This document shows, one piece after another, positions 8,879 through 46,007 of a DNA stretch of 64,000 bases. The position numbers and the translations under genes are program-made. Each line of letters opens with the position of its first letter. Within the stretch, counting starts at the first letter, position 1. The notes under the pieces are model-generated. The model was not told where the DNA came from and did no database searches. It saw only the letters and a program-made list of their open reading frames with translations. This DNA is from Thermodesulfobacteriota bacterium. GTDB lineage: Bacteria; Desulfobacterota; Desulfobacteria; Desulfobacterales; SURF-7. The stretch covers positions 32,001 through 96,000 of the forward strand of contig JBMORA010000017.1 in assembly GCA_049320885.1 (NCBI GenBank), given 5' to 3'.

Positions 8879-8903
8879 AAGAACAGAAGATCGGGATACA
8901 ACC

Positions 8904-9506: not shown

Positions 9507-9534
9507 AAGCGGATCTCCGGTTCGGGGGAACTTC

Positions 9535-9570
9535 GCGGCGCCGATGGGTATCGGCGCCGCTTTTGTTTTT
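9535..9570 (+). terminator. Intrinsic terminator between convergent genes
   Basis: Perfect 11-bp stem GCGGCGCCGAT-gggt-ATCGGCGCCGC followed by TTTTGTTTTT. Confidence 0.85.
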
Positions 9571-10138: not shown

Positions 10139-10222
10139 GTTGTTCCTTTCCTGAAAAGACCTGCCGTTTTGGTTTTCCTCGCGTAAATGGCAGTTTATCA
10201 TATTAGCAGCGGGTTAAATTTG

Positions 10223-20030: not shown

Positions 20031-20444
20031 TCATCTCTTCGATAACGCCAAAAATTCGTCAGGGTCGCAGACGGTAAGCGAAGAACCGGCAAAGTCTTTT
20101 GGGTTTCTAGTGATAACAACATCAGCCCCAGCCATCAGACCGGACTCACTCAACACCGCATCCTCAAAATCCTGGATTTTGCTCACGAGCGCCCGTTCGA
20201 TAACCGGTCTGTTTACGGTGGCAATTTCAAACAGGCTGATGAGCCTGTGCAGGGCATTCCGAGCCGTTGATTTCGGAAGAGATTTTACGAGCAGGTAATC
20301 AATGGTGGTGACGGTCGTGGCACAAATGAGGGCCTCCATGCGAGATTCTTCGGCAAGGCTGAAAATCTTGGCGGCCGGTTTTACGAAAGGATCGCGATCC
20401 AACAGAACATCAAGCACAATGTTGGTATCGATGATCGCTCTCAA
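20031..20444 (-). CDS. PIN-domain (VapC-like) toxin
   Basis: IIDTNIVLD, DFEDA, ITRNPKDF; overlaps the upstream antitoxin stop. Confidence 0.9.
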   Translation of the reverse strand: MRAIIDTNIVLDVLLDRDPFVKPAAKIFSLAEESRMEALICATTVTTIDYLLVKSLPKSTARNALHRLISLFEIATVNRPVIERALVSKIQDFEDAVLSESGLMAGADVVITRNPKDFAGSSLTVCDPDEFLALSKR

Positions 20445-22303: not shown

Positions 22304-22340
22304 ATAACCGCCTTTCCCGATCCCGAAGGGGCCGTAAAAA

Positions 22341-22961
22341 TTATAAAAGATTGTTTTTATTAAGATTTTTCAACACTGCGCGGCACAGGGAGTCCACCAC
22401 TTCCGCAACGTCATCCGGATCCATGATTTCCGAGGAGACCGACCAGATCAGTTTTTCCGTGGCGGTTTCATACAGATTGGTTTCCAGGCGGACAAACACA
22501 TGCTGGCTGTAGTATCCGGGGTAGTGAACGTAATTGTCGACATAGGTGTAATAGGGGCCGAAACCATAGGAAGTCGCGGCCGGGACCCGCTGCATGGTGG
22601 GCGGGGTGTAGACTTCCTCTTCGTCGACTCCCAGCAGATGGGCCACCAGCACTGTATCCGTGCCGAGTTCCAGGGCCTTGGCCTTCAATGTATCCTTGGT
22701 CACTTTTTGATCCGCGGGGATCACCGCCGAACTGGCTGTCGCCGTGACACCTTCGCTGTTCAATTCCCTGGCGAAGGTCTCCTCAAAGAGTTTGCGGTTA
22801 GCGAGGTTGTCGGAAACGCCGACCACCAGGATTTTCTGGATGCGTCCCTTGTAGGCTTCGTCCTTGTACTCGGAAACCAGTTGGGTGGTGGTGCAGGAAG
22901 CCGCCCCCAGCAGAAACAGAAAAAGGAAGGATGAATGGATGAACCTGATTCTTTTACACAT
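22341..22961 (-). CDS. DUF4136-like lipoprotein (paralog of 50736-51362)
   Basis: Lipobox AASC; RLETNLY..ATEKLIWSVSSE; RBS AAGGAG. Confidence 0.75.
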   Translation of the reverse strand: MCKRIRFIHSSFLFLFLLGAASCTTTQLVSEYKDEAYKGRIQKILVVGVSDNLANRKLFEETFARELNSEGVTATASSAVIPADQKVTKDTLKAKALELGTDTVLVAHLLGVDEEEVYTPPTMQRVPAATSYGFGPYYTYVDNYVHYPGYYSQHVFVRLETNLYETATEKLIWSVSSEIMDPDDVAEVVDSLCRAVLKNLNKNNLL

Positions 22962-23198: not shown

Positions 23199-24059
23199 TC
23201 AGTCTGATGTTGCCGCCGGACCCGGTTTGATTTTGAAGAAAGATGATACCGGTATCAGTATCGCCAGCATAAGTATAACCATCGTTGCGATCATCATCAT
23301 CACATTCGGCTGGTCACTAAACGCACTGGTTGCAGCTATTACTGCAACACTGGCATTTCGTGCGCCATGCATGTATCCCATGGCAATCATTGAACCGCGT
23401 TCCGGCCACCCAAGCAGGTAACCGATCCCAAAGGCGACAACGATGTAGATCACTCCTGCAAGAAGTGTATATGTGCCAAACAAACCAATGAATGGCTTAT
23501 AATAAAGCCCGACGAGTGTTAACAGCAGTAAAACCACGAAAAGGCGTGAAATCAGATGCAGGTACTTTTCGGCCTTATGGGCCGCCTTCTCAAAGCGTGA
23601 TCTGATAAAGAGCCCCAGAAGCAACGGCGCCACTATGGTAAGGACCAGCTTCAACACCAGATGCTTTACATCAACTTCAACATCAGGAAGAAATACGCCA
23701 ATCATAACAGGGATGTAGATGATTGTAATGGCAATCGACATGGCAAGTATGCCACCGGCAAGAGAGACATTGGCATTGGATTTGGCCGTAAATATGGGGC
23801 CTATCTCTGCTCCTGCCGCCATGGACAACAATACCAGGCCATATCTCAGCGTCGGATCAAGACCAAAGAGCCTCGCAATGGAGGTGGCAAGAAGCGGAAG
23901 GATGATGTAGCTCGTAACAATCGCTGAGATCGTTAAACGTACATTCGTAAGAGGTTCAATAATCTGTTTGACCGTCTGACTCAATCCCAATGCCAGCATT
24001 CCACTGACCACGTAAATCAGTATGACCGGTGTTAATGCGTGCGATAACAATTCATTCAT
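23199..24059 (-). CDS. Bile acid:sodium symporter (BASS/SBF) family transporter
   Basis: Multi-TM; MLALGL, GYLLG..GARNASVA; RBS GAGG; AT-richer than flanks. Confidence 0.8.
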   Translation of the reverse strand: MNELLSHALTPVILIYVVSGMLALGLSQTVKQIIEPLTNVRLTISAIVTSYIILPLLATSIARLFGLDPTLRYGLVLLSMAAGAEIGPIFTAKSNANVSLAGGILAMSIAITIIYIPVMIGVFLPDVEVDVKHLVLKLVLTIVAPLLLGLFIRSRFEKAAHKAEKYLHLISRLFVVLLLLTLVGLYYKPFIGLFGTYTLLAGVIYIVVAFGIGYLLGWPERGSMIAMGYMHGARNASVAVIAATSAFSDQPNVMMMIATMVILMLAILIPVSSFFKIKPGPAATSD

Positions 24060-24127
24060 TTTTTATTCCTCTTTTTTGGATAGTTACATGAATCAGAAGC
24101 TGACTGACGAAAACAAGCTACACAAAT

Positions 24128-24733
24128 TCATATAAAGCGTACCCGGCCGGTTTCAATCTCGTAGATGGCGCCGACACACTTGATGCGTCCTTCGGCGGCA
24201 CGCGCTTGGCCTTCGGGTGACTCGATGATCGCTTGAACCGTCAAACGGACGTTGCTCTCAACCGCCAGCGTCAGCCGAGTGCGTTTCGGAAGGTCGGGAT
24301 CAACCCCGGCCAGGGCCGGCAGGATGCTGTCCACCAGCAACTGGATCCGGGAAAGTTGTTGAACACCCTCATACTTCATCTGCAGGGCGGCCTGAATGGC
24401 GCCGCACCCTTCGTGGCCGAGCACCACCATCAAAGGGGTTTGCAAATGGCTGCCGGCATATTGCAGGCTGCCCGCCACCTCCGGGGAAAGGACGTTTCCC
24501 GCGACCCGAATCACAAACAATTCACCGATGCCGGCATCGAAAATCCATTCCGGCGGCACGCGTGAATCGCTGCAACCCAGTATCGTCGCAAAGGGCTGCT
24601 GACCCTGGACCAATCCGGCCAAGGTCTCGCGCGGCAGGATAGGCGGACGAGCCTTCCCTTTCAGAAACCGTTCATTGCCGTCGATCAGGCGCTGGAGGGC
24701 TTCGTCGGCGGAAATATCGGGGGGGCTGCTCAT
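24128..24733 (-). CDS. Beta-class carbonic anhydrase
   Basis: GCSDSRV, RVAGN, GHEGCGA zinc motifs; start MSSPPD overlaps the upstream stop (ATGA). Confidence 0.92.
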   Translation of the reverse strand: MSSPPDISADEALQRLIDGNERFLKGKARPPILPRETLAGLVQGQQPFATILGCSDSRVPPEWIFDAGIGELFVIRVAGNVLSPEVAGSLQYAGSHLQTPLMVVLGHEGCGAIQAALQMKYEGVQQLSRIQLLVDSILPALAGVDPDLPKRTRLTLAVESNVRLTVQAIIESPEGQARAAEGRIKCVGAIYEIETGRVRFI

Positions 24734-26331
24734 GATTGCACCCCCATCATCGCCAGCATCACCTGAAGAAGCAGGATCTTCATGATGGTGCCGGTCGGGA
24801 AGGTAAGCGCGTAGGCGATATCCGTGTGGTCGGTGGTCACGAGCTTCGAGGCGAACATCGCGTGGGCGGGGTTGGCGGCCACGCCACAGGTGGTGCCGAG
24901 AAGGTCGTCGATCCGGAACCTGAAAACGAAATGCCCCACGACCAGGTTGAAGAGCACCGCAACGAGAACGATGATAGCCCCCCAAACGAGATAGATCATG
25001 CCGGTTTGCTGCACCGTATCGAGGAAATTCGGACCCGCGGACATGCCGACCTGGGCAAGAAATACCGTGAGGCCGAAATTCCGCAGGATGAGATTGGCGG
25101 AGACGGGCATGGTCCAGACCCACCCGCCGGTTCGTCCCAGCCGTCCCAGGATGAGTCCCACAACGAGCGGTCCACCCGCAACGCCGAGCCGCAGGGGGCC
25201 TAATCCGGGGATAGGGATCGGAAGAATGCCCAGGAGCATGCCAATCGCCATGCCGATTCCGAGCGATACATAGCTGAACTCGGTGGTACCCTTGATAGAG
25301 TCGCCAAAATGCTTGCGGGCGGCCTCGCGATGCTCGCGCCGCATCATCACACCGACGCGGTCGCCGAACTCGAGCACGAGGCCGGGCCGAGGTAGGAGAT
25401 CGGCATCCCCCCGGCGCACATGAATGACGGAGAACTCCCGCACGCCGGGTATCTGGAGATCGACCAGCGAAACGCCGACCACCGCCGGTTTTGAGATGAA
25501 AAACCTGAAATAGTCCATATCTCCCCGGTCAACGGTGATATGGCCGGCAGCGGCTTCACCGATCAGCAGCCGTGCGCCATCGAGCGCCTCCTCAGACTCC
25601 CCTGCCAAAGCCACGACGTCATTATCCGCGAGGACGATATCGGCTGCGGGAACCTTGTTCTGGCTGTCTTGCCGGACGAGGACAATCCGCACACTGGCCG
25701 GCAGCCGGGCGCTTACCTCGGCCAGAGACCGGCCGATGACCTGCCTGTTGCGCACCACGACTTCCCGAAGGTCGAGACCCGTGCCGGTCTGCCCGAGGTC
25801 TTTGGGCTTGAGCCAGAGGTTGGCGAAATACATGCAAAGCAGCGGCGCGATGAAACCGAAGGGATAAGCCACGCTGTAACCAAGGGCCGGATCGTTGTTG
25901 CCGACCGTGCTGATGGCCGCCTGCAGTGCCGGCGTGCTGGTCAACGCACCGCAGAACAACCCGGCGACTGCCGAGGGTGAGACCGAAAACCCGGCGTAAG
26001 CCGCATAGCAGACCCCGATACCGGCAAGGTGAGACATCAGCACCAGCGCGTTCGCCTTTAGCCCGAAAGGGCTGGTCAGGCCGCTGAAGACTTGCTTCCC
26101 ATACATGATCCCTATTCCGTACACAAACAGTATCAGGCCGAGTGATCCCAGCAGGGCAGGCGGGGCGGACTTGGGCGCGAACATCCCCACGCCCAGGCCC
26201 ACGAAGAGCACTGCGCCCGCACCCAGGGAAAAGCCTCGAATGTTCACCCCGCCCAGTGCATATCCAAAGCCGATGACCATGACCATCGATAGCAGCGGCT
26301 GTTGTTCGAGAAAGAGTTTGAGGATATCCAT
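24730..26331 (-). CDS. AspT/YidE/YbjL family antiporter with two TrkA-C domains
   Basis: GLFCGALTSTPALQAA, YSVAYPFG, LGVAGGPLVVGLILG; TM-TrkA_C-TrkA_C-TM layout. Confidence 0.9.
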   Translation of the reverse strand: MDILKLFLEQQPLLSMVMVIGFGYALGGVNIRGFSLGAGAVLFVGLGVGMFAPKSAPPALLGSLGLILFVYGIGIMYGKQVFSGLTSPFGLKANALVLMSHLAGIGVCYAAYAGFSVSPSAVAGLFCGALTSTPALQAAISTVGNNDPALGYSVAYPFGFIAPLLCMYFANLWLKPKDLGQTGTGLDLREVVVRNRQVIGRSLAEVSARLPASVRIVLVRQDSQNKVPAADIVLADNDVVALAGESEEALDGARLLIGEAAAGHITVDRGDMDYFRFFISKPAVVGVSLVDLQIPGVREFSVIHVRRGDADLLPRPGLVLEFGDRVGVMMRREHREAARKHFGDSIKGTTEFSYVSLGIGMAIGMLLGILPIPIPGLGPLRLGVAGGPLVVGLILGRLGRTGGWVWTMPVSANLILRNFGLTVFLAQVGMSAGPNFLDTVQQTGMIYLVWGAIIVLVAVLFNLVVGHFVFRFRIDDLLGTTCGVAANPAHAMFASKLVTTDHTDIAYALTFPTGTIMKILLLQVMLAMMGVQS

Positions 26332-26332
26332 T

Positions 26333-27304
26333 TCAGTTTTCTCCTGGATTCAGCCGGCCAAAGGCCTCGTTGATGATGGCCTGCAGTCGGCTCATGGTTT
26401 CCGGTGCCGGTGGATTGAAATCCCGCATTTCGTATATCCGGCCGAGAAACCCGTATTTGCTCTCGCCGAAACGCATGTAAGGCAGCAGCTCGTAATCAAC
26501 CACGTTTTTATACGGTTTAATGAATGCCAGGGTCGCACGGATATGCTCCTCATCGTCATTGACTCCCGGAATGACCGGCGTGCGGGCAATGAATTTCTTA
26601 TCCGGGAATGTCTCATAGGCCCGTAAAAGGTTTTCCCGGATGCGCATGTTATCCACCCCTGTCCATTTCTTATGCCTGTCCGGATCGGTCAGTTTGATGT
26701 CATGAAGCACGGTATCCACATGCGGCAGGACTTTGGCCATGAACTCCCATGGCACATTGCTCGCCGTCTCGATCGCCGTATTGATCCCGCGCTCATGCGC
26801 CCCTGCCAGCAGCGCCGCCGCAAAATCGGCCTGTAATTGACATTCGCCGCCGGAGAGCGTCATCCCCCCTCCGGATTCACGATAGAAAGCGCTGTCCTGC
26901 TCCACCTCGTCAAGTACCTGGTCCACGGTCATCTTCCGCCCGAACAGGTAAAGGGCATTCGTCGGGCAGACGTCAACACATTTGCCGCAGTTGGTGCAGA
27001 GATCCCAGTTGATCCGGACTTTATCATCCGGCCGGTCGCCGGAGCCGACGATGAATAACGCCAGTTCGGGACAGACATCCTTCAGGCAGAAGCCGCACTG
27101 CTTTTCTCCGATGCAGCTGCCGGGCTTGTATCCGAGTTCCGGTTTCAGATGGATGCTTTCGGGATTCGAACACCATTTGCAGCGCAGGGAACAGCCCTTC
27201 AAAAAAACATTCGTCCGGATACCGGGGCCATCGTGGGTGCAGAAATGCTGGATATTCAAGACGAGCCCTGTCAATGCTCCTGTTTTATCCTGCTGACTGC
27301 TCAT
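26333..27304 (-). CDS. Glycyl-radical enzyme activating enzyme (radical SAM with ferredoxin insert)
   Basis: HDGPGIRT, CSLRCKWC, two ferredoxin-type Cys motifs, GGMTLSGGE. Confidence 0.95.
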   Translation of the reverse strand: MSSQQDKTGALTGLVLNIQHFCTHDGPGIRTNVFLKGCSLRCKWCSNPESIHLKPELGYKPGSCIGEKQCGFCLKDVCPELALFIVGSGDRPDDKVRINWDLCTNCGKCVDVCPTNALYLFGRKMTVDQVLDEVEQDSAFYRESGGGMTLSGGECQLQADFAAALLAGAHERGINTAIETASNVPWEFMAKVLPHVDTVLHDIKLTDPDRHKKWTGVDNMRIRENLLRAYETFPDKKFIARTPVIPGVNDDEEHIRATLAFIKPYKNVVDYELLPYMRFGESKYGFLGRIYEMRDFNPPAPETMSRLQAIINEAFGRLNPGEN

Positions 27305-28473
27305 GGCTTCACCTCCTCGGCTCCAAGCGAGATGCCGAGGGACCGCGCGAGCTTGACGAACTCGCTGTCAGCAGGCACGACCCTGATCTTGTTGATGGCC
27401 TCGGTCATGGGAACGAACTTCAGATCCGGCGGCTGGAAGACCACCATGACACCGCTCTGGCCGGCCTTCAGGGCGCGCACTGCCCCGGCGCCGTATCCCA
27501 GCCCGAGCTGGCGGTCTACGACCGTGGGTGTTCCTCCCCTGGCCAGCTGGCCCAGGACAAGGGGATAGGTTTCCTGGTCGGTCAGTCGCTGGAGTTCAAG
27601 CGCCACCTCGACGGCAATCCGGCCGGATCCTTCAATGACATGAGCGCCTTCGGCGCCGGAGGCTCCCGGAGAGAGTGAGGCCTTCATCTTTGAATCCGAA
27701 GTCCTGGGGGTTGCATCAGTTCCAGTCAATGGTTTCGCTCCTTCGGCCACCACCACCAGCCCGAAGTTTTGCCCCGCCTTCGCCTTTTTCCGTAATTTTT
27801 CCGAAACCTTGCGGAGGTCATAAGGAATCTCCGGGATGAGCACGGCATCGGCGCATACGGCCATGCCCGCCTGCAGGGCCAGCCACCCGGAGTGTTCCCC
27901 CAATACTTCAACCACGCCGATCCGGCGGGCGGACCGGGCTGCCTGCCGAAACCTTTCGAGCATGTCCGCCGTGAAACTCAAGGCGCTGTTGAATCCAAAG
28001 GAAAGGATGGTGGCGGCCACATCATTTTCAACTGATTTCGGCACAGAGACCGTCTGGAGTCCTTTCCGGCTGAGCTTCCAGAGGATGCTCAGCGCCCTGG
28101 AGCCGACCACGGAGACGATGGCATCGATCTTTTCTTTTCTGATGATCTCCAGGAGTTCATCGGACCGGTCCTTCTCCTCCACCATGTTTTCCGCGTTGAC
28201 GGCGCGGACATGGAAAGGGTCGCTTTGGGCCCCGGTGCCTAGGATACAGCCGGCGGCGCCGGCGATGTTTTCCAGGATGGCCGGTGAGAGCCGCATCACT
28301 CCGCCGTCGGGATAGCGGTCGGGAAAGAGCAGCCCTTCAAATCCGTCGCGGATCCCCAGCACTTCCCAGCCCAATTCACTTGCCGCGAGCACCACTCCGG
28401 CAATCACGGCATTGAGTCCCGGGACATAGCCCCCGCCAAAATTGACGGCAATGCGTTTTGCTGCTGTTTGCAT
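27301..28473 (-). CDS. Divergent phosphofructokinase (PfkA)-fold protein
   Basis: PGLNAVI, DGFEGL, VLIPE, VVAEG and RGG.P place it in the PFK fold, but the catalytic motifs are altered. Confidence 0.85.
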   Translation of the reverse strand: MQTAAKRIAVNFGGGYVPGLNAVIAGVVLAASELGWEVLGIRDGFEGLLFPDRYPDGGVMRLSPAILENIAGAAGCILGTGAQSDPFHVRAVNAENMVEEKDRSDELLEIIRKEKIDAIVSVVGSRALSILWKLSRKGLQTVSVPKSVENDVAATILSFGFNSALSFTADMLERFRQAARSARRIGVVEVLGEHSGWLALQAGMAVCADAVLIPEIPYDLRKVSEKLRKKAKAGQNFGLVVVAEGAKPLTGTDATPRTSDSKMKASLSPGASGAEGAHVIEGSGRIAVEVALELQRLTDQETYPLVLGQLARGGTPTVVDRQLGLGYGAGAVRALKAGQSGVMVVFQPPDLKFVPMTEAINKIRVVPADSEFVKLARSLGISLGAEEVKP

Positions 28474-28544
28474 CGATCAACCCCTTTCTTGAAGACGATT
28501 TCTGCTTTCCATTTTTTAGCAATCGTAAAAAATTTTTAAAAGGC

Positions 28545-29651
28545 TTATTTCCTTTTCATTGCAGATGCATGTAATTGATTTGGATCATTTTCGATCCATG
28601 CCGAGAAAATTTTATAAGAAATTGAGAGAACCACCGGACCGAGAAATAAACCGATAGCGCCCGACATTATCATGCCGCCGATAGCGCCAATAAGAATCAC
28701 CAGCATAGGGACTTCGACCCCCCTGCCGAGCAGGAGCGGCTTCAAAATAGCATCACTCAAAGACACAAAAACACTCCAGATCATAAAGACAACAGCCGGT
28801 GTGGTTTCCTGCACAGAAAAGACATAGACGACAATCGGACCCAGAACCAAAAGCGGCGGCAACTGAATAATTGCCAAAAATAAGACGATCAGTGCCCACA
28901 GCCCAGCCGCGGGTACGTTGGCGGCGAGCAGACCAATGCTGGCAAGAATGGCCTGTATCACGGCAATCCCCAAAACTCCCTGGACGACACTTCGTATGGT
29001 ATTGCCTGTGAGGTCTGCGAACACATCTCCTTGTTGTCTTGCCACACGCCGAAAGATCCGATGGGCAGTCTTTACACCGCCGTCTGAATTAACAAGAAAC
29101 AAACCGGCAATAATAATAGAAACAATAAACTGCATGACCGTCATCCCCAGCCCCAGTCCGGCAGAAAAAAGTTTTTTGCCATATGTCATAATATATGGTT
29201 TCAGTTGGTATATCGCTTTTTCCGTATTTTCTGAAGCCAAGCGCCAGAAATTATCGATTGGTTTACCTATCAACGGCCACCCGGCAACTTCATCCGACGG
29301 TGGCGGCACTCGTAATGTGTCGTTTTCAATGCCTGTTTTTAAGGTCTGGATACCGTTAATGGTTGAATCCATCAGCAGGGCCGCTGGGACCATCAACACT
29401 GAAAGTGCAAACAACGTTAACAAAACAGCGGACAGCTTTTTTCGATTGCCCATCATTGAGGAAAGTTTCTGATGCAAGGGGTAAATTCCGATGGCAATGA
29501 TAACACCCCAAAGGACCGGGTTAATAAATGCCCTCACAATCATAAAACTCCATACCACAAGAATTGCGATAAGGGAGATTCGGACAGATGCTTCTATCGA
29601 TTTTCCTATAAAATCGGTATCTCCTCCATTTATTTGATTGAATTTTGTCAT
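28545..29651 (-). CDS. AI-2E family transporter (YdiK-like)
   Basis: DAILKPLLLGRG..GAIGG..GAIGLFLGPVVL; RBS GGAG; AT-richer. Confidence 0.88.
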   Translation of the reverse strand: MTKFNQINGGDTDFIGKSIEASVRISLIAILVVWSFMIVRAFINPVLWGVIIAIGIYPLHQKLSSMMGNRKKLSAVLLTLFALSVLMVPAALLMDSTINGIQTLKTGIENDTLRVPPPSDEVAGWPLIGKPIDNFWRLASENTEKAIYQLKPYIMTYGKKLFSAGLGLGMTVMQFIVSIIIAGLFLVNSDGGVKTAHRIFRRVARQQGDVFADLTGNTIRSVVQGVLGIAVIQAILASIGLLAANVPAAGLWALIVLFLAIIQLPPLLVLGPIVVYVFSVQETTPAVVFMIWSVFVSLSDAILKPLLLGRGVEVPMLVILIGAIGGMIMSGAIGLFLGPVVLSISYKIFSAWIENDPNQLHASAMKRK

Positions 29652-29728
29652 CGCCTTGACTCCATTTTTTACATTTTACCTTTAGGGGTTAAAGTAGCAC
29701 TGCTAGTGCCGTTATCTATTTTGATAGA

Positions 29729-31126
29729 TCACATCTTCGATCCGCGCGATGAGCTCATCATATTGATGATATCTGCTTCTGACATGATGGGACTCTGGTC
29801 TAACCGCAACGCGCCTCCATAGGCATCCTTTGCATCATCCCAGAAGACGGGAATCCCCTTCAGGCTGCCCTCGGATGGCAATCTCAGCAAGGCCTCCCGG
29901 ATAGCGATACGAAGAGTCTCTTCAACAGGCAAGGCCCTGAAAATGGTCCCAAAAACATAATTGATATATTGATGGACATGGACCTTATGTTCTTTTTGAC
30001 TCCACATCGGGGAGATCACCTTCCTCTCAAGGCAGTCCATGAGATGGCTCACAATCGGTTCCAATACGGGCTTCACGTGAATCTGCCGCCACGATCCCGG
30101 GCCGCGGACAGGCTTCTGGACTTCAAGCCTTCTGGTATTGATCCACCTCACGCGTTCACGCGTCTTCCGGGCTCCCAGCCTTTTGACTTGGAAGACTTCG
30201 ATAAAAGCCGTCTCCACTTCGTCCACCTGGACAATAACGATATCCCTTTCCTGCATATTCGCCGCAATCCTGTCGAGTTCGCAGGCCTGCTCATCTTGTG
30301 GATATTGATTCAGAACATTTCCCAAAAACAGGACATTCTGCGTGTTCTTGATCCGTTGAGGAACATCTGTCTTTTGCAAGGTGATTCCGAATTCCGCGAG
30401 ACCTGCCTCCAGAGGATATTTTTCCATCCGGTACCCGTCCCAGGAAAGTCCAGGCTGGCTCGGGTCGCTGTCCTGTTTCTTTTCCAGCTCAATTCCTGCC
30501 TCGATCTTCACCACATCGGGCGCCAGCATTTCGTCCAGTTCCGGGTCGGAGAACTCGACCCGTTCACCTGAGTAGAGGAACGGCCGACCCATGAAATACG
30601 CCTCCCAGACCTCGTTCCCATGCAGATCGTACGAATAGGCGACGGAAGAGACCCGGCCCTTTCGATCCACCACAAAATGCCAGTCCTCCACCTGGCGCAC
30701 AGTCGCCTTGGAAGAGATCATCCGGGACAAGCATCCGCGGATCTGCTCCTCCCTGTCCCCCAGGAGACGGACGTGCGAGTAGGGCACCGCCTCGAGGCGT
30801 TCCGTGGCGACGTAATCCACATCCATCTTGAGGTCACTTGCCAAGAGCCTCTTCAAGGCGGTTGACACTTTGGCACGGGATACGCCGACATCGATGAACG
30901 CAAACCCAGGGTCCAACAGGGGTGGTCCGTCCCGGCCAGGATTTTGAGGATGCTGGAGGTCCCGCAGAAGGCTCCCGATCCCGGCATTCCTGTCAGGGAT
31001 GATGTTGGTGTCGACCAAGGGAACCGAAGTCCGAGCCTTCATGGCCGGAACATCTTCGGGCTGCTCTCGATTTCCCGTGGTGGTGCCTTGAAGCCATGAC
31101 GGGTTCCTTGCCCTCGATATCTTCAC
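29729..31126 (-). CDS. Hypothetical protein, possibly degenerate SAM-dependent methyltransferase fold
   Basis: 465-aa ORF, GTG start with GGAGG; FIDVGVS..YVATE..FLGNVLNQY loosely resemble class I methyltransferase motifs. Confidence 0.5.
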   Translation of the reverse strand: MKISRARNPSWLQGTTTGNREQPEDVPAMKARTSVPLVDTNIIPDRNAGIGSLLRDLQHPQNPGRDGPPLLDPGFAFIDVGVSRAKVSTALKRLLASDLKMDVDYVATERLEAVPYSHVRLLGDREEQIRGCLSRMISSKATVRQVEDWHFVVDRKGRVSSVAYSYDLHGNEVWEAYFMGRPFLYSGERVEFSDPELDEMLAPDVVKIEAGIELEKKQDSDPSQPGLSWDGYRMEKYPLEAGLAEFGITLQKTDVPQRIKNTQNVLFLGNVLNQYPQDEQACELDRIAANMQERDIVIVQVDEVETAFIEVFQVKRLGARKTRERVRWINTRRLEVQKPVRGPGSWRQIHVKPVLEPIVSHLMDCLERKVISPMWSQKEHKVHVHQYINYVFGTIFRALPVEETLRIAIREALLRLPSEGSLKGIPVFWDDAKDAYGGALRLDQSPIMSEADIINMMSSSRGSKM

Positions 31127-31239
31127 CTATCCTCCAAAATCCACTTCTGAAATGCCGAGTTCCGCGCCCGGTTCCGCGAGGGCATTGGTGACGGTGTTTT
31201 GCGGATGGATCATGTTATTCTCCAAGAGTCGGGCGGATT

Positions 31240-31269
31240 CGAACGCCCCCGGCGAACCGGGGGCGTTCG
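31240..31269 (-). other. Strong hairpin downstream of acnX (terminator or mRNA stabiliser)
   Basis: Perfect 13-bp stem CGAACGCCCCCGG with TTCG loop on the minus strand; no U tract. Confidence 0.65.
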
Positions 31270-31295
31270 GCGCTTCTACATACGGAAGATAGTTG

Positions 31296-32786
31296 CTAGT
31301 CGACCATCGGTTTTTCTCCCTGGTACAGCGGGTGTTCCTTTTCGCTGTCTAACCGCTCCTTGCGCGGTTTGCTCCAGTATTCCCAGCGTGCGGTCGGTGT
31401 GAACACGCCGGTCACGGCTGCGTTAACCAGGGCTTCCGGGTTGCCATAGATCCATTTCGGTCCGAAGCCGCCTCCCAGCTTAACGTACTTGAAGCTGTCC
31501 GTCGCGATGACTGTGCCCTTCGGGTAGTGTCGGATCGGGGACATGGCGATGCAGGTCTGGTGGAAGATGTGGCCACCGGCATCCTCGATGATCTTGGTAT
31601 CGCCGTAGTGCTGGGCCATGAAGTACGTGGGCGTGTCGGTCTGCACCCACAGATGTACTCCCTTTTTCACCTTCTTGCCTTTCACCAGGCGCGCAACCTC
31701 GCGGACCTCATCCCAGGTGGCGTGCGGGCAACCGAAGAAGACGATGTCCACCGGCTTCGCCTTTTCAGGTCCGGGCGCCGGCTCGATGGCGTTGAGGTGG
31801 TGGTACATCTCGATGACGTCTTCCATGGTAACCTTATAGCGTTCAGGGTTCTTGGGCATCTTGCCCTTGAAAGCGGCCTCCAGGGTTGGAGACTCCGGTG
31901 TGTAGCCCATGAGGTGCAGCATGGGGTCGTTCATGCCGGGTGAGGCGCAGGAGATCAGATTCTTTGTCGCGCCCGGGCCCATCTTCTTGGGCAGGTTGAG
32001 CACTGCCATGATCCGGTTGCCTGCCTTTTCGGCGATGGCGGCGCCCAGGGCGCCCCAGTCAGCCATACCCTTGATGTTGTCGCGGACCTCGTCAGTCAGC
32101 TCGACGACGCACTTGGCTGCACGATACTCGTCGAGGTGGGTGCCGTACTTCGGCAGGCAGCCGGTGTACGCGCAGTACACCGTGTTGATGGCGGCTTCCC
32201 GGTTGGTCCGGGCGCCCAGGATGGTGTTGATGTAGCAGGCTGCGCTGGACTCGGAGCTGGCGGCATACTCACCCATTTTGGGAATGCGGGTGTTAAAGTA
32301 GGGGTTACACGAGAGCCAGGGAAGCCAGCCATGCTCCATCAGCTTGTCGTACCCCGCCTGGAAGCCATCGACCATTTCCTTGTCGAGTCTGAAGTTTCCT
32401 TTACCCGGAATCTCGAAGTTCCATGGTTTTCCGTTCGGCGGTCCCAGGATCTCGCTGGCCTTGTCCAACTGGCACATGTAGGGATCGTTGCCGCACTCGG
32501 TGCCGGATTCGTCGTGGACATGCGCGTCCTTCATCGCGAAGATCGGATCGTAGAGCGGGCTGTGTCCCAAATCGTATTCATTGAGCTTCGCCAGTCTCTT
32601 CGGCTCCAGACGATCCTTCACATAGATGGGACAGCAGTTGAGCGTGAGGACAAGATCCACCATTTCCGTTGCTTCCACCGCTTTGCCGAAGTCCAAGAGC
32701 TTGTCCATGCAGAACTGTTTGGCTTCGCCATGTTTGCCATCCAGCATTTCCTGTTGGTACGTCGTAAGTTTCATTTTTGCTTTCAT
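31296..32786 (-). CDS. Aconitase X large (catalytic Fe-S) subunit, DUF521
   Basis: LTTYQQEMLDGKHG, SCNPY, SESSA..GARTNRE, GCPH, QTC, TDSFKY. Confidence 0.88.
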   Translation of the reverse strand: MKAKMKLTTYQQEMLDGKHGEAKQFCMDKLLDFGKAVEATEMVDLVLTLNCCPIYVKDRLEPKRLAKLNEYDLGHSPLYDPIFAMKDAHVHDESGTECGNDPYMCQLDKASEILGPPNGKPWNFEIPGKGNFRLDKEMVDGFQAGYDKLMEHGWLPWLSCNPYFNTRIPKMGEYAASSESSAACYINTILGARTNREAAINTVYCAYTGCLPKYGTHLDEYRAAKCVVELTDEVRDNIKGMADWGALGAAIAEKAGNRIMAVLNLPKKMGPGATKNLISCASPGMNDPMLHLMGYTPESPTLEAAFKGKMPKNPERYKVTMEDVIEMYHHLNAIEPAPGPEKAKPVDIVFFGCPHATWDEVREVARLVKGKKVKKGVHLWVQTDTPTYFMAQHYGDTKIIEDAGGHIFHQTCIAMSPIRHYPKGTVIATDSFKYVKLGGGFGPKWIYGNPEALVNAAVTGVFTPTARWEYWSKPRKERLDSEKEHPLYQGEKPMVD

Positions 32787-32833
32787 CGTTTTCTCCCTAT
32801 TTATCTTCTTGTCGTTTAATTCGTTGGAAAAGA

Positions 32834-33271
32834 TTACCCTTTGCGGGTAATTGTTACAGTGGCTTTCTCACCGACTTCGGGCGCGTCGATCTCAACCCAG
32901 TCGCCGGTTCTGATGGTCGTGATCGGGTCCTGGTCCAATTTGTCCACGGCGGGAATTTCACCGGCGATGGCGCCGTTGATATCGATAAAATGAACCTCCT
33001 GGCAGATGAGGCCTGCGGGGCCGTGGTTGGAGACCTTGCACTTGTAGTACAGGCTGAAGGCCCCGCTGGTGGAGCCGGCCGTCGTGGGATAGACGAAGAT
33101 CTTGCCGGTCACGATTTGGCCTTTAGTGTCAGCGCCTGGCGCCATAACCATGCCGTCCTCGTTGCCGACGTGGTTGAACGCCCATCCGATCCGCTGGCGA
33201 TTCACCAACGCTTCGCCTGCCGCTTTTCCTTTAGACCGGGCGATGCCGGTTAAAACGATTTTTTGTTCCAT
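32834..33271 (-). CDS. Aconitase X small (swivel) subunit, DUF126
   Basis: GKAAGEALV, GKIFVYP..GSTSG, GAIAGEIPAVD, TGDWVEIDA; RBS AAGGAG. Confidence 0.88.
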   Translation of the reverse strand: MEQKIVLTGIARSKGKAAGEALVNRQRIGWAFNHVGNEDGMVMAPGADTKGQIVTGKIFVYPTTAGSTSGAFSLYYKCKVSNHGPAGLICQEVHFIDINGAIAGEIPAVDKLDQDPITTIRTGDWVEIDAPEVGEKATVTITRKG

Positions 33272-33423
33272 AATATACTTCTCCTTTACTGTTTGGCGCC
33301 GCTTCCTGGGCAGGGAATGCAGCACATATGTTTTTCCCCGGGGACCGTCCCTGAGTCATCGGGAGCCCTCAAAAAATCGGATAATCCGATCAATCGCTTC
33401 ATCGTTTACAGCCCTCTCTCAAC

Positions 33424-35940: not shown

Positions 35941-36033
35941 GGTCGCTTTTGCTCCTTACTATTTTATAAGATCATGATTCAAATAGGTATCCACGCTTTT
36001 TGCTTGCAAAACGGCGCTGAATCTGATTTCCGG

Positions 36034-36435
36034 TCACGACACTCCGTCCATATCCGGCGAAATGTATTTCCGGCCCTCGAGCACTTCGCGGAAAGCCGGA
36101 ATCAAATCAATCGCTGCTCTTCGTTTCAAAACGTAGCCTTCGACTCCTGCGGCCATCACCTCGTCTATTACTGATTGATCATCGTAGAGGCTAAGGATAA
36201 TGATTTTTATTCTAGGAAACTTTTTTTTCAGGGCCCATGCAATGTTTGTTTCCTCTGAATGTGAAAGCGACTGGTCAACCACCACCACATCGGGATGGTG
36301 GGTCTCCAAGGCATGGTAGAGCGACATTTCGTCGGAAACCATTAAAACCGTCTTGACCTCATTTTCAAGAAGTCGGTATATGCCTCCCAACATATTTGTA
36401 TGTTTATCAGCGAGAATAACACGGCTTTTTCGCAT
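36034..36435 (-). CDS. Stand-alone NarL-type receiver-domain protein
   Basis: RVILADKH, PDVVVVD, GYVLK, G.KYISP; ends without an HTH. Confidence 0.8.
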   Translation of the reverse strand: MRKSRVILADKHTNMLGGIYRLLENEVKTVLMVSDEMSLYHALETHHPDVVVVDQSLSHSEETNIAWALKKKFPRIKIIILSLYDDQSVIDEVMAAGVEGYVLKRRAAIDLIPAFREVLEGRKYISPDMDGVS

Positions 36436-36520
36436 ACGCTTTTTACCTTCAATCGGGCAATCCGGGGCAATCAATTTGTGGAATGATGGTCAGGCTATAG
36501 AAAAGGCGATAATAAAACAA

Positions 36521-36559
36521 CTGGGAAAATTACTGGTCCAGGGCTGGGAAATTACTGGT
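36521..36559. promoter_or_regulatory. Tandem direct repeat, candidate response-regulator operator
   Basis: CTGGGAAAATTACTGGT and CTGGGAAATTACTGGT with cores 22 bp apart, upstream of the receiver/GRE genes. Confidence 0.6.
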
Positions 36560-36603
36560 ATGGGTCGGAAGGTTTTTTGTCTGCGGCCTGGTAATCTGGC
36601 GCA

Positions 36604-37245
36604 TTATACGGCGGCAATGCCTTGTTTCACAGCATACTGGATCAATTCGGAACTGGTCTTGATACCGAGTCGTTCCATCATTTTGTATTTGTGAAATTCA
36701 ACAGTCTTTGTTGAAATATCCAAAACGGATGCGATTTCTTTCGCAGACTTCCCTTCAACCAAGAGTTGTAAAACCTCCCGTTGCCGGGGACTTATCTCTT
36801 TCAAACGAATATTATCCGGTGACAACCCTTTCTGATAGGCGTGGATAAGGTCTCCTGCAATCAGGGGAGTTATATACGTTTTCCCTTTCATTGCTTCATG
36901 GATCGCGGAAACCAACTCGGATGGGGCCGAGTGTTTCAAGACGAACCCGCAAGCGCCTGCCTCAAAAGCACTAGCTGCATAGGTTACGTCCGGGTGCATG
37001 GTTAAAAATACAATCTTGATGCTTTTATCGGTTTTTTTAATCTGGCGCACTGCTTCGATTCCATTGAGCTGGGGCATCGAGATATCCGCCACGATCACAT
37101 CAGGATGGAGGGCGGCTGCCTGTTTGACGAGGGCTCGCCCATCCTGCACTGTTCCGACAATTTCAAACTCGCCTTCCAGAAGGCTTTTTAACCCCATGAG
37201 CACGAAGTAATGATCATCCGCTAATAGAACACGTGCCTTTTTCAT
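36604..37245 (-). CDS. NarL/FixJ-family response regulator (REC + LuxR HTH)
   Basis: LADDH, ADISMPQLNG, SPRQREVLQLLVEGKSAKEIA..KTVEFHK. Confidence 0.95.
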   Translation of the reverse strand: MKKARVLLADDHYFVLMGLKSLLEGEFEIVGTVQDGRALVKQAAALHPDVIVADISMPQLNGIEAVRQIKKTDKSIKIVFLTMHPDVTYAASAFEAGACGFVLKHSAPSELVSAIHEAMKGKTYITPLIAGDLIHAYQKGLSPDNIRLKEISPRQREVLQLLVEGKSAKEIASVLDISTKTVEFHKYKMMERLGIKTSSELIQYAVKQGIAAV

Positions 37246-40082
37246 TCTCCCTCCTTCATCAACCCCTGTAGGGGCACCCTGACGGTGATCCGGGTTCCTT
37301 TTCCCGGTTGGGAGTTGATGGAATGTTCTCCTTGGAAAAGTCTGACCCGTTCACGAATACTCGAGAGTCCCAGGCCCGGTTTTGCTTTTACCACCGCCGA
37401 ATCGAATCCAATGCCATCGTCCTGAATAGATAATAAAATGTCATGATCATTACCCGTTAAGGAAATAGAAATATGCTCGGCGCAGGCATGTTTGGAAATG
37501 TTGCTTAGCCCCTCCTGAATCATTCGGTATAATGACAGAGAAATATCTTTAGGGATAACCGAATGGATGTTCTCATGACGGAAGACGACTTCTGTTCCTT
37601 CTCTTTTCGAAAAATTCGTGCATTGCGATTCGATTGCCCTGATTAACCCCAGATCATCCAAGATGGATGGGTGAAGTCGGCGCGAGAGGTTATGGACATC
37701 TCCAGAGATTTTAACCATATCATGTTTCATTTCACTAAGCATTACCTGAACAGAGGCTGGTTGATCCTTCAACTCTAATTCGAGTCTTCCGATGTTAATT
37801 GCAAAGACCGCCAAACGTTGCACCAAATCATCATGGAGTTCACGGGCCAAGCGGCTCCGTTCCTCCTCCTGATTGTGAATCAATCTCCCGGCAAGCAACC
37901 GGAGCTCCTTTTCACTCTGTAGCAGTATCTCATCACTTTTACGAGTTGCCTCAATCACTTGCTTGCGTTCTATTGCATTGGCAAACAGATTGCTGATGAG
38001 TCGAAACCGCTGCAGCAAATGCCTCGGCCAGACCCGCTCCTTAGTGATCGACACAAGGGCGCATGATCCCAAGGTCTTGTGCCCAGCTATCAGGGGCATG
38101 GAAAGAAACGATTTCATACCCTTGGTCAAGCAAAGTCGCCGTTCATTTTGTGCTTCCGGCGGAAAATCATTTACCCGGTTTATCACCACCGTATTCCCTT
38201 GAATCAATTGCTCCATGTACCAAGGCAGTTGTTCGGCCAACAGCAATTTCGGGGCGGGTTCGACCTCTGCCAAATGATAATCAAAGGCTAGAACAAGCTG
38301 AGTTTGGTCCTCGGTAAATATTCCGATGCTGCATCTATCCGCTTTAAAAAATTCGGTGAAGCCCCGGAGCCACTTATTGATTTCGCTGTCGACAGCATCG
38401 ATGGAAAGGTTCATGAAATGACTTAATAGTTCGGAAATCATGCGTTCAAACAGTAACTGCTCTGCCAAGTTCTCCTCGGCCAGTTTACGCTTGGTGATGT
38501 CTTCCAGAAATCCACTATAGTAGAGCGTTTTGCCGTCCGGATCGCATACCTTACGGCCGCTGAGCGATGCCCAAATTCTCGTTCCATCCTGCCGCAGCAT
38601 TTGGCACTCAAAACCATGCACAACATCCTGCTTTTCAATCAACTCCATAAACTCCAAACGCTTATCCGGGTCTGCATATACCTGATTCCCTACATTTCGG
38701 ATTTTCGCAATCAACTCGCCGGGTGAATCATATCCAAGGGTATTCGCCAGGGCGGGGTTAACCGTCAGAGGCTGACCTTGCGTCGAGGTTTCAAAGAGAC
38801 CTTCTACGGCGCCGTCGAAAATGTTTCGGTACTTTTCTACCGCTTTTCTGAGTGAGTCCTCGGCCGATTTCTTCCGGCGCCTCTGGACAACAAGAAAAAT
38901 AATCAGGGCGCTTTCCACCAGACAGAAGCCTATAACCCCAATAATGTAATACTGGAAGTCATAAAAGGTGGACTGCTTATTTTTGATGATGCTCTCCTCG
39001 GGTAAATCGTTTTCGTTCAGGTCCCAATGCCTGAGCTGCGACCAGTCGAATATCGGTATGGGAGGGACATCCAGAATGGCCTGGGTATTTTCTGAAACCC
39101 GGGTGCCTCCAAGGATTTTCAGAACCATTTGGCCCGCATGAACACCGGTTTGTTCAAAGTTTATGAGACGGCCTCCCACCATCACGTCTGATAGATTGTA
39201 GTCGATAAGCCCGAAGATCGGGGCTGCGGAAACCTGGCGCAGCCGTTTAAGCACTATCGGGTTTGTGTAGTTTTTCCCGGTAACATCCTGGGTATACGTC
39301 AAGAAAAGGATAATGGAGTGGGGGGGCACGCTGGATACCATTGCCAGAACATCCTCGAAGGCCAGGTGGCTCAAGTAGATAAACTCCAGCCGGCTCTCCC
39401 ATTTCTTCAAATCGGCTCGAGCCTGCGCTTCTATAGCTCGGTCGACTTCGTGGGCGCCGCCCACCATATAGACTCGTTTTGCCCCCGGAACCAGCTTTAG
39501 CGCAACCTCAAGCGTGCCGGTGATATTTAACCTGGAGAGATGCCGGATGATGCGGGGGTCGGTCCCTGGCACCCCTTGGTTTTGCGGCAGGTACAAGGCA
39601 AGAATGGGGACATGGGGAAGGACATCCTGGCAATCCTTCAGTACGAATTCCAAAGCTTCCGGATACATGGTTATGATCATGTCGAGCTTGCGACGGCCGT
39701 AACGCGCGCGCATCTGCTCGACCAAAAGTTTTCTATACTCGGCGCCGGGGTTCTGCCTCAGATTAAGGGATTCGAAAAACTGATTCAGGCTGGATATCCC
39801 GCCGGACTCCAGCGTTTCCGCGAGTCCCTTGTCGGTCCCCCAAAAAACGGGTGCGTTGGCTTCATGAGAATGCAGGACCAGAATGTTTTTCCCAGCCAGA
39901 CCTGCAGTAGCCTGTATCTGGGCAAAGGCCTGGCCGGCGCCTGGCCTGAAGGCTATCAGGAGGAAAAAACATAAAACAGAATAAACCGTTGTCACTCTGA
40001 TTCGGTGAGCGTGCGGCATTTCTATGAATAAGGCATTGCTGTTCATGACCTGATCTATCCAAGAAATAGTCTTGCATGTCAA
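37242..40082 (-). CDS. Membrane sensor histidine kinase (periplasmic binding domain, PAS, GAF, HisKA_3, HATPase)
   Basis: EERSRLARELHDD, QEGLSNISKH, DDGIGFD, GLGL; overlaps the regulator start; exact start uncertain. Confidence 0.9.
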   Translation of the reverse strand: MTCKTISWIDQVMNSNALFIEMPHAHRIRVTTVYSVLCFFLLIAFRPGAGQAFAQIQATAGLAGKNILVLHSHEANAPVFWGTDKGLAETLESGGISSLNQFFESLNLRQNPGAEYRKLLVEQMRARYGRRKLDMIITMYPEALEFVLKDCQDVLPHVPILALYLPQNQGVPGTDPRIIRHLSRLNITGTLEVALKLVPGAKRVYMVGGAHEVDRAIEAQARADLKKWESRLEFIYLSHLAFEDVLAMVSSVPPHSIILFLTYTQDVTGKNYTNPIVLKRLRQVSAAPIFGLIDYNLSDVMVGGRLINFEQTGVHAGQMVLKILGGTRVSENTQAILDVPPIPIFDWSQLRHWDLNENDLPEESIIKNKQSTFYDFQYYIIGVIGFCLVESALIIFLVVQRRRKKSAEDSLRKAVEKYRNIFDGAVEGLFETSTQGQPLTVNPALANTLGYDSPGELIAKIRNVGNQVYADPDKRLEFMELIEKQDVVHGFECQMLRQDGTRIWASLSGRKVCDPDGKTLYYSGFLEDITKRKLAEENLAEQLLFERMISELLSHFMNLSIDAVDSEINKWLRGFTEFFKADRCSIGIFTEDQTQLVLAFDYHLAEVEPAPKLLLAEQLPWYMEQLIQGNTVVINRVNDFPPEAQNERRLCLTKGMKSFLSMPLIAGHKTLGSCALVSITKERVWPRHLLQRFRLISNLFANAIERKQVIEATRKSDEILLQSEKELRLLAGRLIHNQEEERSRLARELHDDLVQRLAVFAINIGRLELELKDQPASVQVMLSEMKHDMVKISGDVHNLSRRLHPSILDDLGLIRAIESQCTNFSKREGTEVVFRHENIHSVIPKDISLSLYRMIQEGLSNISKHACAEHISISLTGNDHDILLSIQDDGIGFDSAVVKAKPGLGLSSIRERVRLFQGEHSINSQPGKGTRITVRVPLQGLMKEGE

Positions 40083-45960: not shown

Positions 45961-46007
45961 ACCCACGCTCCATTGAAAGAACTAGTCTCCAGCTCACGGC
46001 ATTTCGA

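Follow-up and report, generated by a model that had tools for sequence, protein, structure and literature searches.

Which of thirteen co-oriented genes serve the same chemistry, and which only travel with it, is the question raised by a locus of a Thermodesulfobacteriota bacterium (GenBank assembly GCA_049320885.1, contig JBMORA010000017.1). The window, i.e., the whole stretch of DNA analyzed, comprises 64,000 nucleotides (positions 32,001 to 96,000 of the contig), and the locus lies on its minus strand at 23199..40082. Its genes encode a glycyl radical enzyme (GRE) and an activating enzyme (activase), the two subunits of an aconitase X (AcnX), a protein with the fold of PfkA phosphofructokinases (Pfk), an orphan protein, a β carbonic anhydrase (CA), transporters of the AspT, AI-2E, and BASS families, and three regulators. 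In the original prediction, they were joined into a single anaerobic pathway for an anionic hydroxy-acid, with a rewired Pfk among its enzymes. Comparison with related loci leads to a different answer: the locus is a mosaic of modules rather than one pathway. The cassette is real, has spread horizontally, and has apparently not been described before; it is probably a variant of the GRE 1,2-eliminase loci in which the activase has a partner of a new kind. As an explanation of the whole, a mobile cassette composed of an activation module, a catalytic module, and variable cargo is favored at about even confidence.

Recurrence of the Cassette in Other Genomes

Searches with the AcnX large subunit retrieved 24 loci from named genomes, and searches with the GRE retrieved 33 loci from metagenomes. 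Eighteen of the latter hold a GRE of at least 80% identity. Ten of these have AcnX; in two, Pfk follows the GRE directly and the upstream part is cut off, and the other six break off within or shortly after the GRE or contain just a fragment of it. AcnX is thus present in 10 of the 12 informative close loci, and the proposal of an uncharacterized GRE with a conserved AcnX pairing is borne out. Seen from the other side, 16 of the 24 AcnX loci carry the GRE and one a small fragment; three are cut short, two have a sister-group GRE 11–12 kb away, and two have no GRE nearby. In two loci (L030, L038), a distant AcnX (46–48% identity) has taken the usual AcnX place beside a GRE of 89–91% identity, which argues for a functional link between the two enzymes.

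For a comparison of gene content, 22 loci that have a close GRE and span 7.5 kb or more were used (14 picked by AcnX, 8 by GRE); several of them are cut by contig ends. All 22 contain an AcnX subunit, 17 contain Pfk, and the activase and the orphan gene are found in 15 each. BASS is the commonest cassette transporter, with 14 occurrences (11 at ≥45% identity). AspT is present in four loci, CA in three, AI-2E in two (both at ≤41% identity), and close regulators in one or two: the sensor kinase and the NarL regulator each reach at least 45% identity in two loci, and the receiver is found in two, one of them at this level. In the relatives, CA only ever occurs together with AspT. The original prediction had asked whether AcnX, Pfk, AspT, and CA recur around this GRE. 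AcnX does so with the GRE and Pfk with the activase, in many other genomes and therefore beyond chance, whereas CA, AspT, AI-2E, and the regulators are mostly not linked in this way elsewhere; the refuting outcome named in that prediction was not obtained. AspT, CA, AI-2E, and the regulators are interchangeable variable cargo, and at these frequencies the tight gene overlaps do not tie CA and AspT to the radical chemistry, as had been supposed.

A Degenerate Phosphofructokinase Fold Beside the Activase

In the alignment to 1ZXX, the GGDGS, TIDND, and MGR motifs of solved Pfks read GSRAL, SVEND, and LGE. The positions which we take to be the Mg/ATP-binding Asp of GGDG, the catalytic Asp of TIDND, and the Arg of MGR are occupied by S125, E149, and E193, and the protein scores below all NCBIfam Pfk cut-offs. 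The catalytic Asp at position 149 is absent from all 54 relatives (53 have Glu and 1 has Tyr), 46 of which have Ser, Ala, or Pro at position 125. A new residue has become fixed at two positions (S147 in 54/54, E149 in 53/54), and several other catalytic positions vary freely. The sugar-phosphate side is largely kept (E244, D151, basic residues at 184 and 312), and a ratio of nonsynonymous to synonymous substitution rates (dN/dS) of 0.18 indicates purifying selection.

A Pfk gene lies directly upstream of all 29 near-complete activases of at least 61% identity (gap −3 to 108 nt) and of none of the 11 at ≤51%. One of the 29 is the window's own, six were found through the Pfk query and 22 through the AcnX or GRE query, 14 duplicate loci having been dropped beforehand. 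Among 400 genomes of the window's phylum, four of six Pfk matches are degenerate and all four precede an activase, while the two canonical ones do not; among 401 genomes of a second phylum, five of ten matches are degenerate, all of them before an activase, and five are canonical. The canonical Pfks of these searches keep their motifs and have no activase adjacent. A plasmid search returned 84 records, all below 60% identity, with 31–36% to annotated plasmid Pfks. Pairwise distances of Pfk and activase correlate at 0.92 over 18 loci; over 12 close loci, the value is 0.75, versus −0.23 for Pfk and GRE. Furthermore, the same Pfk–activase pair stands beside an unrelated GRE (31–33% identity) in four loci (L076, L098, L099, L100).

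The GRE of this second family has a CVG Cys loop lacking the Glu, and its best PDB match is HypD (385 bits). A rhodanese is also present in L098 and L099, and a protein with a C-terminal ferredoxin domain in L076 and L098.

A model of the Pfk–activase complex scored 0.66, compared with 0.00 for the best of three controls; at least 42% of contacts are shared between runs, and the predicted local confidence (pLDDT) of the partners is at least 83. Of the solved pairs, 116 of 157 attain the mark for this score, as do 2 of 215 mismatched ones; the mark is only roughly applicable to the custom alignments used here. In the model, the radical-SAM loop, the ferredoxin-like insert (99–102), and residues 183–185 of the activase face the former ATP face of Pfk, and 6 of the 21 positions specific to Pfk-linked activases fall within the 25-residue interface. 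The model supports binding of the two proteins rather than showing it; we know of no comparable solved complex. Having lost its kinase residues, tracking the activase rather than the GRE, joining an unrelated GRE, and being modelled in the bound state, the PfkA-fold protein looks like an activase partner and not the pathway kinase that had been proposed.

Genes for S-adenosylmethionine (SAM) synthetase lie nearby in L005, L014, L030, L044, and L099, and NifU-like genes in L006, L007, and L032; both fit a support of radical-SAM activation. In L044 (2154–4144), the genes immediately before a GRE of 58% identity encode SAM synthetase and a nucleoside phosphorylase, which fits SAM supply and by-product removal.

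The Glycyl Radical Enzyme and the Sulfonate Lyases

The GRE combines the PF02901 and PF01228 domains with a catalytic Cys, a C-terminal Gly loop, and a cognate activase, as expected of a PFL-like GRE. Its best PDB matches are 5YMR (808 bits), 6LON (769), and 7KQ3 (755), i.e., IseG, HpsG, and IslA. Every NCBIfam equivalog cut-off is missed, that of HpsG narrowly (991.7 bits, cut-off 1000), and the activase scores 377.1 bits against the HpsH model (cut-off 430). The arylacetate decarboxylase models give 308 bits for HPAD (cut-off 1150) and 365.7 for IAD (cut-off 1100). Because these scores are far lower than that of the HpsG model, the decarboxylation that had been considered for this enzyme is unsupported.

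All 19 aligned relatives share R196, R686, C473, E475, and G813, and the Cys loop reads C473-S-E475, the CxE motif of GRE 1,2-eliminases; in the parts of the literature covered, this motif is also described for isomerases and some decarboxylases, so that it is necessary and not sufficient for the eliminase class. On sequence grounds, the GRE would belong to the class of 1,2-eliminase loci, and an elimination is predicted. According to passages of a 2026 review, C–S lyases use two Arg and one Gln for the sulfonate, Q193 being essential in IslA, and R678 of IslA is described in a passage of PMC8473560 as the position that reaches the sulfonate. The equivalents of R189 and R678 are kept in the window GRE as R196 and R686, but the position of Q193 is N200; likewise, the Gln of the HpsG triad R183/Q187/R672 is Asn. 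W374, which contacts the Gly loop rather than the substrate in the descriptions covered, is H379. Other changes relative to IslA are I192 to Gln, T312 to Gly, V680 and F682 to Ile, and GYFE to SCID. The enzyme also falls outside the cluster of ~60% identity, the level that separates GRE functions according to passages of PMC6453916. The true IslA/HpsG-like genes of the relatives are only 45–49% identical to it, and the FastTree topology, for which no support values are quoted, sets them apart from their sister group, which has an RHSQNW strand and comprises no fewer than four active-site types. Judged by its sequence, the GRE is part of an uncharacterized sister group of the sulfonate lyases IslA, IseG, and HpsG. 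A structure model from the 19-row alignment (mean pLDDT 61, active-site loops below 50) was not used.

The sister radiation of IslA (P0091, P0100, P0103, P0113, L073, L075, L101, L102) displays the active-site types FSHHE/CSE, FSHHE/CIE, FAHFE/CIE, and FSKFE/CCE, each a candidate for a different substrate. Two of these loci, L101 (9721–19606) and L102, combine their sister-group GRE with a 51% identical activase and AcnX 11–12 kb away, with no Pfk fold. Their neighbors are three short-chain dehydrogenases/reductases (SDRs), a β-keto acid cleavage enzyme, an MFS transporter, a CMD-family protein, and AraC. The β-keto acid cleavage enzyme raised the possibility of a carnitine-type elimination of trimethylamine, which was rejected on account of the two arginines on the leaving-group side. 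Cleavage of a 3-hydroxy acid in the manner of a formate-lyase was set aside for thermodynamic reasons.

Aconitase X and the Orphan Protein

The large subunit of AcnX keeps the cluster cysteines C160, C353, and C412, the Glu/Ser pair, and K433, and differs in its N-terminal substrate loops. Split subunits, three cluster Cys, a Ser base, and the Glu/Lys for the C3-OH place it in type II. Compared with TkAcnX as described in passages of PMC8184944, the cluster ligands, the Glu/Ser/Lys for the carboxylate and the C3-OH, and the Ser base of the small subunit match. Of the residues of phosphomevalonate dehydratase (AcnX IIb), Y365 is replaced by Leu, and the region 48–79 with G48-V49-S50, N53, and N79 does not align. 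With its site kept, Y365 replaced, and no alignment over the phosphate-binding region, AcnX is probably an active 3-hydroxy-acid (de)hydratase with a substrate other than mevalonate 5-phosphate. The bacterial AcnX types IIc–f are stated, in the passages covered, to be without known function. The retention of R196, R686, and C473-S-E475 in the GRE and of the carboxylate/OH site in AcnX leaves an anionic hydroxy compound as the likely substrate class, in agreement with the original prediction.

The orphan protein has no Pfam match. Its homologues number 161, the best 120 of which are all at least 59% identical. In VIA-align, its structure model (pLDDT 89.7) reached a top Z of 8.9 (root-mean-square deviation 3.1, 131 aligned residues), against a tool background of Z 7–8; nearly all of the top 50 rows are methyltransferase folds. 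Foldseek with the model gave nothing at E 0.001. A Rossmann-like fold, an acidic/Gly motif I, and an acidic end of strand 2 are seen in the model, and among 115 sequences G53 and E81 are invariant and D51 is nearly so. In the Atlas, the protein falls in a CheR-like cluster with Pfam matches on 17% of the members. By its modelled fold, it would be a class I SAM-dependent methyltransferase, with putative SAM binding and methyl transfer.

Spread, Selection, and Presence in RNA Libraries

Records bearing the titles Deltaproteobacteria, Verrucomicrobia, Bacteroidales, Nitrospira, Anaerolineales, and Binatia contain AcnX large subunits of 91–96% identity; for five of these, the contig is at least 431 kb long. 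Two cultured organisms, Luteitalea sp. TBR-22 and Sphingomonas limnosediminicola, are candidate carriers, listed at 86–87% identity. The synonymous distance of the GRE is 0.36 to a Verrucomicrobiia locus and 0.42 to a Nitrospira locus, and no GRE more than 49% identical to that of the window was found in 60 relatives of the host genome. These values point to recent horizontal transfer across phyla, so the loci are not independent samples. A GRE search in 401 genomes of the phylum of G458 gave no match, at a threshold that likewise missed the positive control, a frameshifted copy.

Median dN/dS values of six core genes lie between 0.07 and 0.26; pairs with synonymous distances of 2 or more were dropped (GRE 1 of 28, AcnX large subunit 1 of 29, Pfk 8 of 28, activase 13 of 22).

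Four of 16 listed RNA runs were examined, from three studies of soil and rice paddy; their contigs belong to relatives, and DNA may be present. Per run, 2,023–11,734 contigs fit the window stretch at 80% or more. Single contigs bridge the large and small AcnX genes, activase and Pfk, and AspT and activase, although a bridge is not proof of a single transcript. The regulators and AI-2E have almost no cover; as these genes are not conserved among the relatives, this is neither evidence nor a silent control.

Traces of recombination are visible in individual loci. The 3′ ends of orphan genes run into short pieces of the GRE or activase C-terminus (L026, 14655–16094; L006, 2833–4203; L027, 6301–7635; L001, 12090–13472), and L022 holds fragments of the GRE C-terminus; these are scars of recombination within the cassette. 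The catalytic Cys of the L029 GRE reads Tyr, and L003, L021, L022, and L030 contain frameshifted genes, which may reflect either decay or sequencing error.

Proposed Mechanism and Alternative Explanations

In the activation module, the activase would work together with a bound PfkA-fold protein that has ceased to be a kinase. Its former ATP face would dock on the radical-SAM loop and the ferredoxin-like insert, most likely to stabilize the activase or to gate its activity, and the pair would be swapped as a unit among different GREs. In the catalytic module, AcnX may interconvert a 3-hydroxy-carboxylate and an enoate through a Ser-base/[4Fe-4S] mechanism. The C473 thiyl radical of the GRE would take the carbinol hydrogen from a hydroxy compound, E475 would deprotonate the hydroxyl group, and the anionic group held by R196 and R686 would be eliminated, leaving a keto acid rather than a free aldehyde; therefore, neither a microcompartment nor an aldehyde dehydrogenase would be needed. 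The methyltransferase-fold protein may add an optional SAM-binding step. BASS is the likeliest transporter, and AspT, CA, AI-2E, and the regulators would be interchangeable. The best guess for the chemistry is thus that a hydroxy-acid handled by AcnX loses an anionic group, probably sulfite, through radical elimination; within the explanation of the whole, the assignment to sulfite is tentative and falls somewhat short of even confidence.

Several observations weigh against this proposal. Q193, reported as essential in IslA, is Asn, and the Arg at the R189 position also occurs in HypD and is therefore no sulfonate marker. dsrA scores above the cut-off in 3 of 10 carrier genomes, the window's host included (completeness is given for two), so sulfite respiration cannot be the general purpose of the cassette. 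AcnX is found in only 1 of the 15 more distant GRE-query loci; two of the close ones (L041, L055, both cut upstream) show Pfk directly after the GRE and no AcnX, and L016 and L020 have AcnX but no GRE nearby. As for the activation module, a partial 63% activase in L036 directly follows the GRE with no Pfk between them. Adjacent genes co-vary by linkage alone; the loci are not independent; the custom alignments lay outside the calibration of the complex tool; and the modelled interface is no more conserved than the rest of the proteins (activase 0.73 versus 0.78, Pfk 0.75 versus 0.73).

Part of this evidence can be read with the same two modules and another substrate, namely either a hydroxy di- or tricarboxylate that contains no sulfur (an organic acid of plant type) or a phosphate ester. 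Carboxylate or phosphate would then be what the arginines bind, the GRE would be a C–O eliminase, AcnX would hydrate a trans-enoate, and the methyltransferase fold would esterify a carboxylate, as trans-aconitate methyltransferase does. The changes of Q193, W374, F682, and the GYFE segment of sulfonate lyases, the seven of ten carriers in which no dsrA was shown, the SDRs, β-keto acid cleavage enzyme, and CMD-family proteins of the sister loci, and the relatives' contigs in RNA libraries of soil and rice paddy all suit such a substrate. However, the nearest characterized enzymes are all C–S lyases and the distinctive second arginine is kept; SulP permeases (L001, L011, L014, L026) and YeiH-like exporters (L033, L042, L043; below the NCBIfam cut-off) lie nearby as well, although both are common cargo. 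A sulfur-free organic acid is a serious rival, if a rather unlikely one. The opposite extreme, in which isethionate or dihydroxypropanesulfonate is the substrate of a divergent IslA or HpsG and the neighbors are incidental, would account for the HpsG score just below its cut-off, for both arginines and the CxE motif, and for dsrA in the window's host. It is very improbable in view of the separate group formed by the true IslA/HpsG-like genes of relatives, at identities below the level that separates functions, the loss of Q193 and W374, the activase score below the HpsH cut-off, and the conserved linkage to AcnX.

The remaining explanations concern the role of the Pfk fold. If it were a small-molecule sensor or a passenger co-inherited with the activase gene, without binding the activase, the correlated distances could follow from linkage alone, and the largely kept E244, D151, and basic residues at 184 and 312 could still bind a ligand. 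Such a role is unlikely beside the adjacency in 29/29 versus 0/11 cases across two GRE families, the purifying selection on the fold, and the contrast between the complex model and its controls. If instead it were a re-specified kinase acting in series with AcnX and a decarboxylating GRE, CA handling the CO2 and AspT exchanging substrate and product, the single pathway of the original prediction would be restored. Co-orientation and tight junctions, the similarly high GC content at third codon positions (GC3) of GRE, AcnX, Pfk, activase, AspT, and CA, the Pfk positions fixed in a new state, and the renewed company of AspT and CA in L008, L009, L011, and L013 speak for it. It is nevertheless improbable: CA and AspT are rare in the close loci, Pfk follows the activase and is also found with an unrelated GRE family, the modelled contact with the activase lies on the former ATP face of Pfk, and the decarboxylase models score far below their cut-offs. 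The mobile cassette with its activation and catalytic modules is thus retained as the preferred explanation. Taken further, the whole activase clade may be two-component, with a Pfk-derived pseudoenzyme on the auxiliary ferredoxin domain and the radical-SAM loop controlling radical installation. This portable unit would spread unrelated GREs across phyla, facultative hosts included, and would here have brought a new radical reaction into contact with a bacterial AcnX on an abundant anionic hydroxy-acid of anoxic soils. This joint reading is possible, though its probability is below one half.

Gene Inventory and Surroundings

The order and coordinates of the thirteen genes were confirmed, and the Pfam families, alongside which NCBIfam was run, agree with the names originally given (Table 1). 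The ATGA overlaps of Pfk with activase and of AspT with CA and the 1-nt gap between activase and AspT are likewise as described; the kinase and regulator genes overlap by 4 nt. CA starts at 24733 rather than at the upstream GTG, the true start of the AcnX small subunit is probably somewhat downstream of the start of its open reading frame (ORF), and the orphan gene has an ATG at 31042, its longest ORF beginning at 31126. GC3 ranges from 0.67 to 0.79 in GRE, AcnX, orphan, Pfk, activase, AspT, and CA, and from 0.47 to 0.57 in the regulators, AI-2E, and BASS. A promoter and terminator scan found 14 and 22 sites, respectively, against 11.5 and 20.3 expected.

Table 1. Genes of the locus, with positions in the window and the basis of each assignment.
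Feature	Position	Strand	Basis and remarks
PAS-GAF-HisKA_3 sensor kinase	37242..40082	-	Pfam; variable cargo
NarL/LuxR response regulator	36604..37245	-	Pfam; variable cargo
Stand-alone receiver domain	36034..36474	-	Pfam; variable cargo
GRE, 838 aa	33424..35940	-	Pfam PF02901 + PF01228, PDB matches, HpsG model, tree
AcnX small (swivel) subunit, catalytic Ser motif	32834..33325	-	PF01989; alignment to 7CNR_B
AcnX large subunit, type II	31296..32786	-	PF04412; alignments to 7CNR_A, invariant columns
Orphan protein, predicted class I SAM-dependent methyltransferase fold	29729..31042	-	Structure model; no Pfam match
AI-2E family transporter	28545..29651	-	PF01594; GC3 0.47; variable cargo
PfkA-fold protein, degenerate kinase site	27301..28473	-	PF00365; alignment to 1ZXX, residue tables, adjacency, complex model
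GRE activase, radical SAM with ferredoxin-like insert	26333..27304	-	TIGR02494 above cut-off; Pfam
AspT/YidE/YbjL antiporter	24730..26331	-	PF06826 + TrkA_C; variable cargo
β carbonic anhydrase, 201 aa	24128..24733	-	PF00484; variable cargo
BASS/SBF transporter	23199..24059	-	PF01758; GC3 0.52

The original prediction had noted that no microcompartment shell or aldehyde/alcohol dehydrogenase gene is in the window. This extends further: no bacterial microcompartment shell domain was matched in the host genome (98% complete), and none of its matches to aldehyde dehydrogenase (nine) or iron-containing alcohol dehydrogenase (four) lies on the window's contig (C17). A repeat search revealed no recognizable element ends among the repeat families shown. 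On the 3′ side of BASS, an SLT/SBP protein and a lipoprotein are encoded on the same strand (20819–22961), both with ~61% paralogues elsewhere in the genome. To the left of the cassette, lower-GC patches contain a Fic-domain gene (10223–11737) and a PIN-domain gene (20031–20444). On the other side, a fatty acid cis/trans isomerase gene (43534–45966), in our view unusual in a dsrA-bearing host, lies upstream of a YhdP-like gene. Five more GRE matches (27–33% identity) are found on contigs C28, C46, C9, C25, and C53 of genome G000, with only three further matches to the window activase (C25, C46, C53); the GRE of C28 is ~5 kb from an aldehyde dehydrogenase. Contig C25, where AI-2E adjoins CA and an SLT protein and an AspT paralogue are present, was considered as a second copy of the cassette island and ruled out, its GRE being only 30% identical and its other neighbors different.

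Significance and Comparison with Known Systems

No paper on a GRE with aconitase X, a Pfk, an accessory protein of this kind, or carbonic anhydrase was found in the literature covered, which left out most subscription papers, so that absence from print is unproven; within this coverage, the claim that the GRE–AcnX pairing is novel stands. The main text of PMC13450708 does not contain the words "aconitase", "phosphofructokinase", or "methyltransferase". Its section 2 names the activase of E. coli PFL (PFL-AE) as the only solved one and no activase partner, and states that the auxiliary ferredoxin domain has an unknown role and that no full activase of this type has been solved. If true, the docking of a partner on this domain would open its role to direct testing and might account for the poor behavior of some activases on their own. 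Two orphan families could be studied in a single assay system built on the cassette, namely the sulfonate-lyase sister group with its four active-site types and the bacterial type II AcnX. Moreover, its recent spread across phyla and the many variants in RNA libraries of soil and paddy suggest a substrate that matters in anoxic soils.

Among known systems, the locus most resembles IslA/IseG (7KQ3, 5YMR) and HpsG (6LON), with which it shares the arginines at positions 189 and 678, the CxE Cys loop, the Gly loop, and an activase with a ferredoxin-like insert. It differs in the substitutions at positions 192, 193, 312, 374, 680, and 682 (the Ile at 682 is also found in HpsG) and in the SCID segment. 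Furthermore, its host has no microcompartment genes, its GRE has AcnX, a methyltransferase fold, and a Pfk fold as linked neighbors, and most of the tested cassette hosts show no dsrA. The type II AcnX enzymes, i.e., the archaeal phosphomevalonate dehydratase (7CNR/7CNS) and cis-3-hydroxyproline dehydratase (type IIa), are two-subunit proteins as well. On the basis of passages of PMC8184944, the window AcnX matches C110/C283/C342 of the former and keeps E129, S130, K361, and S62 and T63 of the small subunit, whereas Y365 is Leu, V64 is Ser, and the N-terminal part, where the phosphate of mevalonate 5-phosphate is bound, fails to align. With PfkA-family phosphofructokinases, the Pfk-fold protein shares fold and length, but not the GGDGS, TIDND, and MGR motifs and two phosphate-binding residues. 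Finally, like the multi-subunit GREs HPAD, BSS, and MASS, the cassette would tie an extra protein to the installation or stability of the radical. In those systems, it is the GRE to which the accessory subunits, small Fe-S or rubredoxin-like proteins, bind (section 4.2 of PMC13450708), whereas here a Pfk fold of 390 residues is predicted to sit on the activase.

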